Positions 1-4,298 of a DNA stretch of 4,298 nucleotides are shown here, in pieces; position 1 is the first letter of the stretch; each line of letters starts with the position of its first letter. The DNA comes from a virus (taxonomy: Duplodnaviria; Heunggongvirae; Uroviricota; Caudoviricetes), in IMG/VR virus record IMGVR_UViG_2630968808_000006; one strand, given 5' to 3'. The translations under genes and the position numbers were made by a program. The notes under the pieces were generated by a model, which was not told where the DNA came from, ran no database searches, and worked only from the letters and a program-made list of their open reading frames with translations.

Positions 1-615
1 GTGAGCGAAATTAATTACCAGGCACTGCGTGAAAAGGCAGAAAAAGCAACGAGTGGTGTGTGGTCGCTCGAATATGGAGATGGCCGATTTGATGGTGATG
101 ATGCACTAATTCATCGCGAGGCTGCTGGATATATTCCCATTTGCAGAATTGAAGGAGCGCATCCTGAAAGCGGTTTCGATGAAGATTTCCAAATAGAACA
201 GCAGGCCAATGCTGAATTCATCGCCGCAGCCAATCCGGCTACCGTGCTGGCACTACTGGATGAACGGGAAAGAAACCAGCAATACATCAAACGCCGCGAC
301 CAGGAGAACGAGGATATTGCGCTAACGGTAGGGAAGCTGCGTGTTGAGCTGGAAGCAGCAGAGAACAACCTTATTGATAGTGAATGCCATGTTGCTGAAC
401 TGGAAGAAGCGCTACGCGATAAGCAGGCGTTACTTGAAGCCTCAGAAAAGCGCATAGCAGAACTGGAAGCGCGGGAAATACTGCTCCCGGAACGTAGCAG
501 CATGCTTCATCGAACAGATTTTCACGAGGATTATCAAACGGTAATGGCATACAAAGTTTCTGAAGTCATCGCTGCAATCCGCGCCGCAGGCATTCGCATC
601 AAAGAAGGTGAGTAA
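1..615 (+). CDS. ea22: Ea22-like early-left accessory protein (204 aa) with a central coiled-coil
   Basis: ORF opens with GTG at window position 1 and translates MSEINYQALRE...; central block LLDERERNQQYIKRRDQENEDIALTVGKLRVELE and C-terminal AGIRIK.GE match what I recall of lambda Ea22; heptad-like E/A/L-rich centre; sits upstream of xis/int as in lambdoid phages. Start coincides with the window edge, so the true N-terminus could lie upstream. Confidence 0.8.
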   Translation: MSEINYQALREKAEKATSGVWSLEYGDGRFDGDDALIHREAAGYIPICRIEGAHPESGFDEDFQIEQQANAEFIAAANPATVLALLDERERNQQYIKRRDQENEDIALTVGKLRVELEAAENNLIDSECHVAELEEALRDKQALLEASEKRIAELEAREILLPERSSMLHRTDFHEDYQTVMAYKVSEVIAAIRAAGIRIKEGE

Positions 616-791
616 TGCGTGTGGCATGTATCGGCTTGTTACCGTACCCGACTCGTTTTTGGGCTTCTGCGCTAATTGCAAAGCCACATATCCTGATGGC
701 TGACAACATCATCCCGGCACCAAAGCGCCGCCGTACCGGTATTGCAGCGGCACGACGTGCAGCAAAGAAACGCAGGAGAGCAAAACGATGA
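615..791 (+). CDS. small hypothetical protein (58 aa) with a strongly basic Arg/Lys C-terminal tail
   Basis: Not in the supplied ORF track (below its length cutoff); read by hand: ATG at 615 overlaps the ea22 stop (TAATG) and its TGA stop at 789-791 overlaps the next ATG (ATGA). Translation MRVACIGLLPYPTRFWASALIAKPHILMADNIIPAPKRRRTGIAAARRAAKKRRRAKR. GGTGA Shine-Dalgarno-like motif a few nt upstream. Support is overlap geometry only. Confidence 0.4.
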   Translation: MRVACIGLLPYPTRFWASALIAKPHILMADNIIPAPKRRRTGIAAARRAAKKRRRAKR

Positions 792-979
792 AAAACCGTA
801 AAGCAAAGATGCTTATTTCCCGTATATACAGCCGTTGCTATCCCAGCCAGTGGTTGAGAGTTAGCAATCGCCGTATGGTGTTGTACTTATATTCTGGAAT
901 TGCCAGAGAGGGAATCAAAGATAAGCCCAGCGCAGCGCAAAACCGCTGGAAAAACCACTTGCGCACTAAAGGAGAGTAA
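788..979 (+). CDS. hypothetical basic protein (63 aa)
   Basis: ATG at 788 preceded by AGGAGAG (771-780) with about 9 nt spacing; start overlaps the upstream stop (ATGA); its TAA stop (977-979) is 1 nt from the next start. No recognisable domain. Confidence 0.4.
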   Translation: MKNRKAKMLISRIYSRCYPSQWLRVSNRRMVLYLYSGIAREGIKDKPSAAQNRWKNHLRTKGE

Positions 980-980
980 T

Positions 981-1199
981 GTGCCAACATTATTCAGAAA
1001 AGAATATCCGCGAAGAAGTCGAATAACAGAACTCCTGTTTCTCATTCTGTTTATCGTGTTGATGATACCGATATCCCCGCTAATTTTTGTCTGGGCAATC
1101 GGGAAAATAATTGAGCCAGTTATTGAATTGTATAACGACGTGGTATGGGCGTCGTTCAACACTCTGCACAATAAAATTAATCCATATAAGGAAAACTGA
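981..1199 (+). CDS. small single-pass membrane protein (72 aa from the GTG start)
   Basis: GTG at 981 lies 6 nt after GGAG (971-974), in frame with track ORF 900..1199, whose 5' part overlaps the previous ORF in another frame. Product begins (M)PTLFRKEYPRRSR, followed by one hydrophobic stretch LLFLILFIVLMIPISPLIFVWAIG and a ~30-aa polar tail. By hand count about 38% GC versus about 50% in ea22, with rare codons ATA, AGA and CGA. Confidence 0.5.
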   Translation: MPTLFRKEYPRRSRITELLFLILFIVLMIPISPLIFVWAIGKIIEPVIELYNDVVWASFNTLHNKINPYKEN

Positions 1200-1200
1200 A

Positions 1201-1623
1201 ATGACCACCATTACCAGAGAAAGCGCGGAGATTAAATCATTCATCACTGGCTTCCTGAGCGACCCGGCGCACGATAACCAATCATCAAACAGTCTGTTTG
1301 CTGATGTGTTTCGTATCGCGCTGGCCTCGCTGGAAGCAGAACCAGTTGCATGGACTGATGACGAGGAACTGCGAGATGTTGAGCAAATTGGTTTAGGTTA
1401 TTTATTACCTTGTCCTCCAGATAAATACGCAGACCCGCGTCGTGTAATTCCGCTGTATCGTGTGCCGCCAGCTCCCATAGTGCAGGCACAGGGAATTGAG
1501 ATCGCAATAAACGAACTGGTGTCTCTGTCCCCACAGCTGGATAAACGAGCGGTGGAAACTCTTTCTATGGCTGTGGCACATCTACGTAAACTGGTTAAGA
1601 AGCAGTTGCAGGTTAAGGAATGA
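1201..1623 (+). CDS. hypothetical protein (140 aa); N-terminal domain paralogous to that of the next ORF
   Basis: ATG at 1201 preceded by AAGGAA (1188-1193) with 7 nt spacing and placed 1 nt after the upstream stop; the track's longer form from 1111 would overlap the previous gene and lacks an RBS. Shares RIALASLEAEPVA and VIP(L/V)Y..AP motifs with ORF 1627..2475. Confidence 0.65.
   Translation: MTTITRESAEIKSFITGFLSDPAHDNQSSNSLFADVFRIALASLEAEPVAWTDDEELRDVEQIGLGYLLPCPPDKYADPRRVIPLYRVPPAPIVQAQGIEIAINELVSLSPQLDKRAVETLSMAVAHLRKLVKKQLQVKE
1312..1353 (+). repeat. copy 1 of a 42-nt in-frame direct repeat encoding RIALASLEAEPVAW
   Basis: CGTATCGCGCTGGCCTCGCTGGAAGCAGAACCAGTTGCATGG; about 33/42 nt identical to 1717..1758, with most differences at codon third positions. 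Confidence 0.7.
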
Positions 1624-1626
1624 CAC

Positions 1627-2475
1627 ATGAACGCTATCACCAAAGAACGTATTGAATTGTTCATTAAAAATCCGCTTGATAACGGGCTTACCCGTGGCGA
1701 ACAAATGGAACTGGCACGAATTGCACTGGCATCACTGGAAGCAGAGCCAGTTGCTTATATTTTCAAACATCCGGCCGGAAAATTATTCTGGGCTTTGACG
1801 GATGAAAGCAATAAAGATCAATCGGACGTTATTCCTGTTTATGCTGCCGCGCCTGCGTCGGTTGTGCCGGATAATGCATCAGAGCCTCTTGCTTATGCTT
1901 ACAAAGAGCTTACGCCTGAGATTATGCGCAACCATTTAGCTGTATTCGAGCGATATGGAATAGCACCAAACGATAGCTCTACCACAATTCAGGCACTGCG
2001 AATCGCGCTGGATGGCATAGAGCGGAGCGACGCCATGCTTCATGGTGCCGAAACTGTAAGCCAAACTTACAAGTTGCCAGTTAATACACCTTGCCAAGAT
2101 GCGCCAGCCCATATCTGGCTGCAAACGGCTGGAGTATGGCCAGAAGATGGCGAGTTAAGCGAATTAACGTGGTGCAGCCACAATCAGCACCATGATGACA
2201 CGCTATATGTTCGAGCTGACCTTGTGAATGGCAACTCTCCGGTAACTACGGATGGTTGGATAAGCTGTAGTGAGAGAATGCCTGAAAAGAACCAGAACGT
2301 GCTTATTTCGGTGAATTTCGATAGTGATCTGGTTGAGCCGCTAATATGCTCCGCACGCTATACCGGAAGTACATTCCGGCGTGGAGGTGTAACGGTTATG
2401 CCAGGTAATGGTATTGAGCAAGCAACTCACTGGATGCCGCTACCGGAACCGCCGCAGGAGGTAAACCGTGGCTAA
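1627..2475 (+). CDS. prophage protein (282 aa) with a DUF551-like C-terminal domain (Eaa-type)
   Basis: ATG at 1627 preceded by AAGGAA (1615-1620). C-terminus DGWISCSERMPEKNQNVLISV...ATHWMPLPEPP resembles the W...P...THWMPLPEPP signature I associate with DUF551 enterobacterial prophage proteins (recalled, not searched). N-terminal domain is paralogous to ORF 1201..1623. Confidence 0.75.
   Translation: MNAITKERIELFIKNPLDNGLTRGEQMELARIALASLEAEPVAYIFKHPAGKLFWALTDESNKDQSDVIPVYAAAPASVVPDNASEPLAYAYKELTPEIMRNHLAVFERYGIAPNDSSTTIQALRIALDGIERSDAMLHGAETVSQTYKLPVNTPCQDAPAHIWLQTAGVWPEDGELSELTWCSHNQHHDDTLYVRADLVNGNSPVTTDGWISCSERMPEKNQNVLISVNFDSDLVEPLICSARYTGSTFRRGGVTVMPGNGIEQATHWMPLPEPPQEVNRG
1717..1758 (+). 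repeat. copy 2 of the 42-nt in-frame direct repeat encoding RIALASLEAEPVAY
   Basis: CGAATTGCACTGGCATCACTGGAAGCAGAGCCAGTTGCTTAT, 405 nt downstream of copy 1; a partial third copy CGAATCGCGCTGG at 1999-2011 encodes RIALDGIE within the same gene. Confidence 0.7.
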
Positions 2476-2752
2476 CCTGCAACTTGCTGTCAAAGGTGAA
2501 TACTTCGATGCCATGATTCGCGGGGAGAAAACGGAAGAGTATCGCCTGTGTAATGACTACTGGAAAAAGCGCCTCGTTAACCGTAAGTATGACCGCCTGA
2601 TTATCACAAAGGGATATCCGAAGCGCGACGATTCCAGCCGTAGAATTGATGTTCCGTATGACGGATATGAAATCAAGACAATCACACATCCGCACTTCGG
2701 CGATAAACCGGTAAAGGTGTTCGCGATAAAGGTGAATATCAGCAATGAATAA
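2468..2752 (+). CDS. 94-aa ASCH/PUA-like (DUF3850-like) small protein in the slot lambda uses for ea8.5
   Basis: GTG at 2468 preceded by AGGAGG (2456-2461) with 6 nt spacing; overlaps the upstream stop by 8 nt (GTGGCTAA). N-terminus LQLAVKGEYFDAMIRGEKTEEYR fits the ASCH-type pattern (L.L....YF.A...G.KT.E.R). Only one Cys, so probably not the zinc-binding lambda Ea8.5 fold. Confidence 0.65.
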   Translation: MANLQLAVKGEYFDAMIRGEKTEEYRLCNDYWKKRLVNRKYDRLIITKGYPKRDDSSRRIDVPYDGYEIKTITHPHFGDKPVKVFAIKVNISNE

Positions 2753-2785
2753 CAATCCTCGCACTCGCGGGGATTTCTTTTATCT

Positions 2786-2812
2786 GAACTCGCTACGGCG
2801 GGTTTTGTTTTA
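2786..2812 (+). terminator. weak hairpin plus U-rich tract after the 94-aa ORF (possible attenuator)
   Basis: CTCGC (2789-2793), loop TACG, GCGGG (2798-2802) with one G-U pair, followed by TTTTGTTTTAT. Short stem, interrupted T-run. Confidence 0.2.
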
Positions 2813-2824
2813 TGGAGATGATAA

Positions 2825-2992
2825 ATGCACTTCCGAGTCACAGGTGAATGGAATGGAGAGCCATTCAACAGAGTTATCGAAGCAGAGGACATCAACGACT
2901 GCTATAACCACTGGATGATATGGGCGCAGATAGCGCATGCAGACGTAACCAATATTCGAATTGAAGAACTGAAAGAACACCAAGCCGCCTGA
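2825..2992 (+). CDS. 55-aa hypothetical protein, positional equivalent of the small ORF between ea8.5 and xis in lambda
   Basis: Not in the ORF track (below its length cutoff); read by hand: ATG at 2825 is 7 nt after GGAG (2814-2817); translation MHFRVTGEWNGEPFNRVIEAEDINDCYNHWMIWAQIAHADVTNIRIEELKEHQAA; TGA stop (2990-2992) lies in the loop of the terminator hairpin. Distance to xis and int matches my recollection of the lambda map. Confidence 0.55.
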   Translation: MHFRVTGEWNGEPFNRVIEAEDINDCYNHWMIWAQIAHADVTNIRIEELKEHQAA

Positions 2993-3004
2993 TGGCGGTT
3001 TTTT
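2982..3004 (+). terminator. Rho-independent terminator (GC stem, UGAU loop, T6 tail)
   Basis: GCCGCC (2984-2989), loop TGAT (2990-2993), GGCGG (2994-2998) giving 5 G-C pairs plus flanking G-U and A-U pairs, followed by six T (2999-3004). On the minus strand the stem is followed by non-T sequence, so it is + strand specific. Confidence 0.6.
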
Positions 3005-3005
3005 C

Positions 3006-3045
3006 TTGCGTGTAATTGCGGAGACTTTGCGATGTACTTAACACT
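3006..3045 (+). promoter_or_regulatory. cII-activated pI-type promoter: TTGC-N6-TTGC box flanking the -35, with the -10 and start point inside the first codons of xis
   Basis: TTGC (3006-3009), GTGTAA, TTGC (3016-3019) is the tetranucleotide direct repeat recognised by lambda CII at pRE, pI and paQ; it lies about 13-26 nt upstream of the xis ATG (3032), matching the lambda pI arrangement. The -10 hexamer is not unambiguous (candidates TGTACT or TACTTA around 3033-3040). Confidence 0.6.
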
Positions 3046-3250
3046 TCAGGAGTGGAACGCACGCCAGCGGCGCCCAAGAAGCCTTGAAACAGTTCGTCGA
3101 TGGGTACGCGAGTGCAGGATATTCCCTCCTCCGGTTAAGGATGGAAGAGAGTATCTGTTCCACGAATCAGCGGTAAAGGTTGACTTAAATCGACCAGTAA
3201 CAGGTAGCCTTTTGAAGAGGATCAGAAATGGGAAGAAGGCGAAGTCATGA
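3032..3250 (+). CDS. xis: excisionase Xis (72 aa), lambda type
   Basis: ATG at 3032 is 8 nt after GGAG (3020-3023); product MYLTLQEWNARQRRPRSLETVRRWVRECRIFPPPVKDGREYLFHESAVKVDLNRPVTGSLLKRIRNGKKAKS matches lambda Xis as I recall it; overlaps int by 23 nt as in lambda. Confidence 0.95.
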   Translation: MYLTLQEWNARQRRPRSLETVRRWVRECRIFPPPVKDGREYLFHESAVKVDLNRPVTGSLLKRIRNGKKAKS

Positions 3251-4298
3251 GCGCCGGGATTTACCCCCTAACCTTTATATAAGAAACAATGGATATTACT
3301 GCTACAGGGACCCAAGGACGGGTAAAGAGTTTGGATTAGGCCGAGACAGGCGAATCGCAATCACTGAAGCTATACAGGCCAACATTGAGTTATTTTCAGG
3401 ACACAAACACAAGCCTCTGACAGCGAGAATCAACAGTGATAATTCTGTTACGTTACATTCATGGCTTGATCGCTACGAAAAAATCCTCGCCAGCAGAGGA
3501 ATCAAGCAGAAGACACTCATAAATTACATGAGCAAAATTAAAGCAATAAGGAGGGGTCTGCCTGATGCTCCACTTGAAGACATCACCACAAAAGAAATTG
3601 CGGCAATGCTCAATGGATACATAGACGAGGGCAAGGCGGCGTCAGCCAAGTTAATCAGATCAACACTGAGCGATGCATTCCGAGAGGCAATAGCTGAAGG
3701 CCATATAACAACAAACCCGGTCGCTGCCACTCGCGCAGCAAAATCAGAGGTAAGGAGATCAAGACTTACGGCTGACGAATACCTGAAAATTTATCAAGCA
3801 GCAGAATCATCACCATGTTGGCTTAGACTTGCAATGGAACTGGCTGTTGTTACCGGGCAGCGAGTTGGTGATTTATGCGAAATGAAGTGGTCTGATATCA
3901 TAGATGGCTATCTTTATGTCGAGCAAAGCAAAACCGGCGTAAAAATTGCCATCCCAACAACATTGCATGTTGATGCTCTTGGGATATCAATGAAGGAAAC
4001 ACTTGATAAATGCAAAGAGATTCTTGGCGGAGAAACCATAATTGCATCTACTCGTCGTGAACCGCTTTCATCCGGCACAGTATCAAGGTATTTTATGCGC
4101 GCACGAAAAGCATCAGGTCTTTCCTTCGAAGGGGATCCGCCTACCTTTCACGAGTTGCGCAGTTTGTCTGCAAGACTCTATGAGAAGCAGATAAGCGATA
4201 AGTTTGCTCAACATCTTCTCGGGCATAAGTCGGACACCATGGCATCACAGTATCGTGATGACAGAGGCAGGGAGTGGGACAAAATTGAAATCAAATAA
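3228..4298 (+). CDS. int: tyrosine site-specific integrase Int (356 aa), lambda type
   Basis: N-terminal arm-binding region MGRRRSHERRDLPPNLYIRNNGYYCYRDPRTGKEFGLG; catalytic residues at lambda Int positions: R in VTGQRVGDL (R212), H308-x-x-R311 in TFHELRSL, H333 and Y342 in LLGHKSDTMASQY (positions counted from the translation). GAGG RBS 7 nt upstream. Complete ORF ending TAA at 4296-4298. Confidence 0.97.
   Translation: MGRRRSHERRDLPPNLYIRNNGYYCYRDPRTGKEFGLGRDRRIAITEAIQANIELFSGHKHKPLTARINSDNSVTLHSWLDRYEKILASRGIKQKTLINYMSKIKAIRRGLPDAPLEDITTKEIAAMLNGYIDEGKAASAKLIRSTLSDAFREAIAEGHITTNPVAATRAAKSEVRRSRLTADEYLKIYQAAESSPCWLRLAMELAVVTGQRVGDLCEMKWSDIIDGYLYVEQSKTGVKIAIPTTLHVDALGISMKETLDKCKEILGGETIIASTRREPLSSGTVSRYFMRARKASGLSFEGDPPTFHELRSLSARLYEKQISDKFAQHLLGHKSDTMASQYRDDRGREWDKIEIK

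Follow-up and report, generated by a model that had tools for sequence, protein, structure and literature searches.

A probable mosaic junction beside a conserved 71-nt spacer with two predicted terminators in the leftward early operon of a lambdoid prophage

The concept of the boundary, or linker, sequence is found in the modular theory of Susskind and Botstein and in the HK620 and Sf6 genome papers; in lambdoid and P22-like phages such sequences are short conserved non-coding stretches that lie between non-homologous modules and have breakpoints at their edges. The exo-xis region has been described as highly mosaic, and its genes ea8.5 and orf55 as specific to lambda (PMC8614690). Here we describe a window of 4,298 nucleotides (nt), by which we mean the whole stretch of DNA that was analysed, from IMG/VR virus record IMGVR_UViG_2630968808_000006, in which an ASCH-like gene is joined through a 71-nt spacer to a lambda-like orf55-xis-int segment. 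From the spacer onward the window has the same order as the exo-xis/int-xis region of lambda (NC_001416, 27812-29361), namely spacer, orf55, the terminator t'I, the promoter pI with its cII site, xis and int. To the left it differs, since lambda's spacer is preceded by ea8.5 and a further 12 nt, whereas in the window the ASCH-like gene ends on the TAA of the spacer and is itself preceded by five further non-lambda open reading frames (ORFs). We put at roughly 80% the probability that a genuine mosaic junction lies at position 2748/2749, within the leftward early operon of a prophage of the lambdoid type integrated at att-lambda, and that the spacer at 2749-2819 is a conserved cassette made of a stop codon, two terminator-like hairpins and a ribosome-binding site. 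The features around the junction are the following.

2468-2752, plus strand: ASCH-like gene, 94 amino acids (aa), the last of the non-lambda segment, named after its RefSeq homologues
2748/2749 (lambda 29362/29361): breakpoint against lambda, from the ungapped alignment, the blastn high-scoring segment pair (HSP) and 50-nt bins
2749-2819, plus strand: conserved 71-nt spacer, consisting of ATAAC (with the stop codon), hairpin 1, a T tract, hairpin 2, a T tract and GGAG
2816-2819, plus strand: GGAG, the Shine-Dalgarno sequence for orf55 here and for other first genes elsewhere, invariant in the alignment of divergent copies
2825-2992, plus strand: orf55, homologue of lambda lambdap35, 55 aa, from the lambda annotation

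The comparison with lambda 27500-32500 by blastn gave an ungapped HSP pairing 2749-4298 with lambda 29361-27812 at 98.07% identity, 30 of the 1550 nt being mismatched. When the window was binned by 50 nt without leaving the lambda register, identity was 0.20-0.26 over 2449-2748 (22-26% directly to the left of 2749) and 0.94-1.00 over 2749-3048, with 0.24 in the bin 2699-2748 and 0.98 in the adjoining bin 2749-2798; base by base, identity to lambda starts at ATAACAATCC (2749). At this point near-identity gives way abruptly to no detectable similarity, as at a lambdoid module junction. To its left lambda has the end of ea8.5 followed by 12 nt and the window has the end of the ASCH-like gene, and the breakpoint lies on a gene boundary in both, abutting the ASCH stop codon (2750-2752) in the window and falling 12 nt past the ea8.5 stop in lambda. 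Relative to lambda, everything from the ea22 stop codon to the spacer has been exchanged. Both sides of the junction also occur with other partners in other phages: the ASCH match in phage 21 and ev017 ends at window position 2758 and is not followed by the hairpins and orf55, and orf55 is present without ASCH in lambda.

An earlier note on this DNA had proposed a mosaic junction in or near the 72-nt gap between the ASCH-like ORF and orf55, and had suggested plotting nucleotide identity to lambda along the window. The plot is a step function, by which both uniform identity and uniform divergence are excluded. The gap (2753-2824) is real, the ASCH-like ORF ending at 2752 and orf55 starting at 2825, and no other intergenic space on the coding strand is as large, the next in size being the 39 nt between orf55 and xis. 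The likeness to lambda in gene order, sizes and sequences from 2825 on is equally well founded, with 53 of 55 aa identical in the orf55 product, 71 of 72 in Xis and 352 of 356 in Int. The proposed position has to be moved, as the step is found not at about 2825 but at 2749, where the ASCH stop marks the left edge of the gap; the gap had been taken as ground between two segments, and it belongs wholly to the lambda-like side. We give practically no credence to the view that there is no discrete junction and that the window comes from a diverged lambda relative with uneven substitution rates: identity goes from 24% to 98% within one 50-nt bin, by which this view is already refuted, the upstream genes belong to other families than lambda ea8.5, and nothing was found in its favour.

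The spacer differs from that of lambda by a single mismatch, which lies at 2777 in the hairpin 1 tail. Of the phage records, 319 contain the 86-nt stretch 2745-2830, most of them at 95-99% identity, and in these records the spacer is conserved at more than 93%. Its carriers are, among others, lambda, 434, HK and mEp phages, Stx1 and Stx2 phages, Shigella phage Sf6, ES18 and the P22-like Salmonella phages ST104, ST160, BTP1, Emek and g341c. This taxonomic range is taken from the phage collection; the genome-contig scan gave mostly lambda DNA contamination in unrelated taxa. The scan of species representatives with hairpin 2 matched, among others, assemblies of Shewanella, Pseudomonas, Oceanobacillus, Kitasatospora and Bradyrhizobium, on low-coverage contigs that were lambda-sized (loci L135, L141 and L146, 48.4-48.5 kb) or short fragments (also within L136-L154), and these matches are almost certainly lambda DNA contamination. 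One further locus, in Ancylomarina (L145), is a chimeric mis-assembly of lambda reads in which the spacer is duplicated.

The neighbours of the spacer were collected by means of an exact 32-mer of hairpin 2, which retrieved 119 IMG/VR contigs; the ends of the spacer-containing alignment with the window were recorded in each, and the 250-nt flanks of 121 loci were clustered. The left flanks fell into 23 clusters (about 12 distinct kinds) and the right flanks into 8, and these are met in many combinations. On the left the spacer is preceded by ASCH, ea8.5, an ea8.5-like gene, DUF551 genes or one of several unrelated genes, and ASCH, DUF551 genes and an unrelated gene of 284 aa all end on its TAA (2750-2752). 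On the right it is followed by orf55, by a 114-aa gene similar to ORF114/HK022p30, by a 101-aa gene, by an 83-aa Xis-like gene or by others of 57 and 199 aa, with the start codon 5-9 nt past GGAG in 7 of the 8 right-flank classes. Like a boundary sequence, then, the spacer is a short conserved non-coding stretch common to phages with non-homologous flanking genes. The Sf6 record AF547987 differs in this respect, its annotated 'bsq' feature bsq2 lying at the pI region and not on this spacer, and no record was found that labels this spacer as a boundary sequence. The C/A variant at spacer position 2777 was found with more than one left-flank class, which is weak evidence on crossover within the spacer.

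The ends of the alignments gathered at a few positions, as given below in raw counts for the 119 contigs.

2746-2750: left ends of 56 contigs
2728: left ends of 21 contigs
2699: left ends of 8 contigs
2424-2469 (ASCH start): left ends of 25 contigs
2770-2771: left ends of 5 contigs
2817-2827: right ends of 38 contigs
3004-3017: right ends of 34 contigs
4292-4298 (end of int): right ends of 33 contigs

The clusters at 2746-2750 and 2817-2827 agree with the earlier suggestion that the gap is a typical place for lambdoid exchange. A histogram of all alignment ends showed hot spots at 240-250, 350-370, 1620, 1700-1750, 2220-2290, 2420-2470, 2690-2750, 2810-2830 and 3000-3020, which match gene boundaries and conserved intragenic motifs, and 2748/2749 is one of many junctions in the window. 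In E. coli PM4-5 (L003, 4357-5220) orf55 is followed by an ORF114-like gene and torI, an excisionase gene of the KplE1/HK620 type, with no lambda xis-int; this arrangement indicates that the right side of orf55 (3004-3017, the t'I/pI region) is another exchange point.

Several loci show the ASCH gene lost or cut back beside the spacer. In six of them (L013, L089, L073, L099, L112 and L119) the whole gene is gone through an in-frame deletion of 249 nt between the TGAATA repeats at 2497-2502 and 2746-2751, leaving a mini-ORF of 11 codons, VANLQLAVKGE*, joined to the stop codon of the spacer; the loss looks like a microhomology-mediated deletion. Phages of the 434 type (L002/L156) keep about 21 nt of the ASCH 3' end, from 2728, beside unrelated genes, and loci of clusters 4 and 12 (L009 and L055 among them) keep a remnant of about 50 nt, from 2699, in which the new upstream gene stops at an out-of-frame TAA (2702-2704). 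This suggests that ASCH beside the spacer is an old arrangement which has been repeatedly overwritten.

A possible but clearly less favoured explanation of the same pattern, along the lines of Hendrix and Juhala, is random illegitimate recombination followed by selection for intact genes, in which the spacer would be no substrate of recombination and would be conserved as a terminator and ribosome-binding site travelling with the downstream gene. The step against lambda is abrupt and has no flanking diverged homology, and illegitimate events do occur here, as seen in the TGAATA microhomology deletions and in the joints inside ASCH at 2699 and 2728. The spacer, however, has 8 different right neighbours and so is not tied to orf55, its left and right flank classes recur in many combinations, and homology-driven formation of mosaics in lambdoid phages has been shown experimentally (PMC3945230). 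Moreover, at least six unrelated left flanks join the spacer within 2748-2750, which is tighter than random joints filtered for gene integrity would readily give. This tight coincidence is not fully explained; our best guess is selection for the common stop codon together with an intact hairpin. Because the left joints of at least six unrelated upstream genes all lie within 2748-2750 (ATAAC), which could point to a specific joining mechanism or strong stop-codon selection and not to chance, one could imagine, as a rather far-fetched idea, that the 71-nt cassette is a dedicated cassette-exchange linker for the accessory region of lambdoid and P22-like phages, a homology-based analogue of integron attC for 'ea' genes.

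The gap holds two hairpins in tandem, both found by the terminator scan.

2754-2785, plus strand: hairpin 1, stem-loop at 2754-2775 with 9 bp, and T tail, TCTTTTAT
2786-2815, plus strand: hairpin 2, stem-loop at 2786-2805 with 8 bp, and T tail, TGTTTTAT

The predicted folds have -13.1 kcal/mol (z = -5.0) for hairpin 1 and -11.0 kcal/mol (z = -3.4) for hairpin 2, and for neither was any of 200 shuffles as stable. The earlier note was right that the gap contains a hairpin and wrong in calling it weak and in seeing only one. The elements GGGATTTCTTTTAT and GGGTTTTGTTTTAT lie 30 nt apart, and the two hairpin units look like a diverged tandem duplication when their sequences are compared. Both have the sequence properties of an intrinsic terminator, that is, a GC-rich stem-loop followed by a T tract, on the transcribed strand and between genes. 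A sequence homologous to hairpin 1 is annotated as terminator t-L4 in the phage 434 record M60848, although 434 differs from the window in a variant stem (CCTCG...CGAGG), in the stretch of ASCH 3' end described above and in having two opposite-strand membrane-protein genes on the left. The lambda counterparts of hairpins 1 and 2, which have the same sequences except for base 2777, were predicted by ARNold as t3_lambda and t4_lambda (Bloch et al. 2014, PMC4195576, Table 4). On this sequence evidence the gap is a pair of already-predicted intrinsic terminators.

Among the copies, the 32 sequence variants of hairpin 1 all fold to a hairpin before the T tract, with variation mostly in the loop or from G.U to A-U, and the G-to-A variant of hairpin 2 in Sf6 and g341c likewise turns a G.U pair into A-U. 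In three loci (L022, around 700-800 on the minus strand; L006, 10365-10465; and L126, which is g341c, 671-694) hairpin 1 has been swapped for unrelated GC-rich hairpins; these are joined within the common T tract, at about 2770/2771, with hairpin 2 and the Shine-Dalgarno sequence retained, and the g341c record annotates its replacement as a Rho-independent terminator. Such whole-hairpin replacement with the same T tract would fit a generic terminator function. A 57-aa ORF across the gap (2745-2918) was considered and rejected, as it overlaps orf55 out of frame and the conservation pattern tracks the hairpins and not the reading frame. The consensus scan found no promoter-like site in the gap.

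It is also conceivable, though unlikely, that the hairpins are primarily an element of RNA processing or stability, for instance an RNase III or 3'-exonuclease barrier for the upstream messages, or a protein-binding site. An operon antiterminated by N reads through intrinsic terminators, which makes a barrier or processing role imaginable, and the tandem layout together with the extreme conservation of hairpin 2, loop included, exceeds what a generic terminator needs. Against this stand the canonical GC stem and T tract of both hairpins on the transcribed strand, with no terminator-like match for either on the opposite strand, and the exchange of hairpin 1 for unrelated GC hairpins with the same T tract. 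A search of Rfam at a permissive threshold gave no match anywhere in the window at E <= 1, so that the gap hairpins belong to no curated RNA family; this too speaks against a specialised RNA element.

A number of points weigh against our reading of the locus as a mosaic junction next to a conserved terminator cassette. There is no shoulder of diverged homology to lambda on the left of 2749, so that this particular joint could be purely illegitimate in origin, and 71 nt is a short homology for efficient recombination. All 119 contigs were chosen by the hairpin 2 32-mer and many are near-duplicates, with the effect that there were fewer independent events than the raw breakpoint counts suggest. 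No double compensatory substitution, which would prove an RNA structure, was found among the spacer variants, whose sequences are too alike for a covariation test. For the terminators, none is annotated at this site in the GenBank and RefSeq records of lambda, and no experimental report of termination at the gap hairpins was found in the literature, the published support consisting of predictions and GenBank annotation. To our knowledge, none of the terminators t-L4, t3_lambda and t4_lambda has been assayed; literature searches gave nothing relevant on tL4, and on tL3/tL2 only a vector paper using tL3.

Taking the gap as a terminator cassette, the two hairpins would probably stop transcripts without N antitermination, and xis-int would thereby be insulated, to be reached only by N-modified transcription from pL or by cII-dependent pI, a proposal based on established lambda biology and on the pI/CII annotations of OL657226. 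Each new joint would probably have arisen once, by illegitimate or microhomology recombination close to a stop codon, as indicated by the TGAATA-flanked ASCH deletions, the 21-nt ASCH remnant in 434-type phages and the unrelated gene joined at about 2699. The cassettes may then have been shuffled among phages by homologous or homeologous recombination of the Red or RecT type, for which the conserved spacer would offer homology on one side and conserved patches such as the 3' end of ea22 on the other. Red and Rad52-like recombinases form lambdoid mosaics experimentally by relaxed homologous recombination (PMC2327257, PMC3945230).

The ASCH-spacer-orf55 arrangement is common. Of 5,426 complete E. 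coli genomes, 500 contain the stretch 2468-2992 in full, as do 14 phage records, with identities of 93-99%, and 3,244 E. coli genomes contain some part of it. The same junction is thus carried by E. coli prophages and by phages such as vB_EcoP-720R6 and phiv205-1; prophages with this junction diverge from the window further upstream or downstream, as PM4-5 does with its ORF114-like gene and torI. No complete genome or phage record covers at least 80% of the whole window, owing to the many other junctions inside it.

The window is genuine DNA, all 4298 nt being 100% identical to contigs of GCA_012072925.1, GCA_053804575.1 and GCA_000809145.1. Downstream of int, these contigs carry genes of the pectinesterase and aconitase families, which we take to be ybhC and ybhJ; ybhC directly downstream of int places the prophage at the att-lambda site. 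Upstream of the window the matching contigs carry N, RecT, Gp157 and DUF2737 genes. All real genes of the window are on the plus strand, which is the lambda leftward pL direction. Its left part is composed as follows.

1-615, plus strand: Ea22-like gene, 204 aa (Pfam Ead_Ea22, E = 4.6e-35)
615-2748, plus strand: non-lambda accessory block of six ORFs (ORF list, Pfam; no blastn similarity to lambda 27500-32500)
615-791, plus strand: small ORF
788-979, plus strand: small ORF
981-1199, plus strand: DUF4014 gene (Pfam)
1201-1623, plus strand: 140-aa ORF
1627-2475, plus strand: DUF551 protein gene (Pfam)

The accessory block occupies the place of the lambda ea22-ea8.5 spacer and ea8.5. The earlier note held that the upstream gene content differs from lambda, which is true of this block, lambda having ea8.5 there, but not of the Ea22 homologue at 1-615. 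The stretch that departs from lambda has this Ea22-like gene as its left limit, and the gene holds the sole lambda similarity left of 2749; its product is 41% identical to lambda Ea22 by BLASTP, and at the nucleotide level blastn found patches of 94.9% (244-360), 83.7% (1-49) and 89.7% identity (585-612), while the 3' ends of the two genes have a 22-nt patch in common. The Ea22-like gene is internally mosaic against lambda ea22, with the 95% core at 244-360 set between unrelated stretches.

For the last gene of the block, RefSeq homologues of about 95% identity are named 'ASCH domain-containing protein'; the label ASCH-like rests on these names, since the Pfam ASCH match of the protein is sub-threshold (E = 0.057, 14.6 bits against a cutoff of 21.2). 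Six upstream proteins gave no matches in NCBIfam. The adjacent ORFs 1201-1623 and 1627-2475 have N-terminal regions that are 32% identical and hold an identical motif, RIALASLEAEPVA. In alignments with other phages, breakpoints gather around this motif (1700-1750) and where the DUF551 domain begins (2220-2290), and these are intragenic mosaic junctions at conserved motifs.

The upstream block could also be regarded as a 'moron' with its own promoter and terminator, the gap being the terminator of the moron, an idea that we hold to be very improbable. It has in its favour that a terminator-like structure follows the block and that the genes are non-essential and accessory. No sigma-70-like site, on the other hand, was found on the plus strand of 1-2824, the six ORFs lie close together and run in the direction of the pL operon, and lambda, which is without this block, has the same terminators. 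The consensus scan for sigma-70-like promoters over both strands of 1-4298 gave one site, at 4258, where 6.9 +/- 2.6 were expected from shuffles; the activator-dependent pI (3006-3037) goes undetected by such a scan.

To the right of orf55 the lambda-like segment continues with the following features.

2982-3007, plus strand: orf55-xis terminator hairpin (t'I in both 434 and lambda; t5_lambda), from the terminator scan, with a second cluster of mosaic breakpoints
3006-3037, plus strand: pI promoter region, with the cII-binding TTGC-N6-TTGC at 3006-3019, lambda-identical here, its position transferred from OL657226
3032-3250, plus strand: xis, 72 aa (Pfam Exc, E = 3.9e-41)
3228-4298, plus strand: int, lambda-type tyrosine integrase of 356 aa (Pfam Phage_integrase and Arm-DNA-bind_1)

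The hairpin between orf55 or ORF114 and xis is annotated as t'-I in the phage 434 int-xis record M60848, and the t'I terminator in the complete 434 record OL657226 is annotated with PMID:6305007; the lambda counterpart of the hairpin at 2975-3012 of the window is listed as t5_lambda (ARNold, PMC4195576, Table 4). The overlap of xis and int, the cII-dependent pI over the start of xis and the arm-binding integrase are those of a lambda-type int-xis module, as predicted from the sequence.

Taken as a whole, the locus is a textbook case of a boundary between lambdoid modules, in an exo-xis region already known to be mosaic, confirmed here and not novel, and the accepted picture of lambdoid mosaicism is unchanged. 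The only mildly new angle is how sharply bounded and how widely reused the 71-nt spacer from stop codon to Shine-Dalgarno sequence is. A lambdoid module boundary can be located from sequence alone, in this case with the exact breakpoint 2748/2749, and the spacer is a good landmark for the ends of cassettes in the annotation of prophages as well as being useful for engineering exchanges in this region. For the phages themselves, the finding shows a non-essential exo-xis accessory region rebuilt around a small conserved spacer with a predicted terminator and a ribosome-binding site, the same 71 nt linking many interchangeable genes in lambda-like, Stx-converting and P22-like phages.

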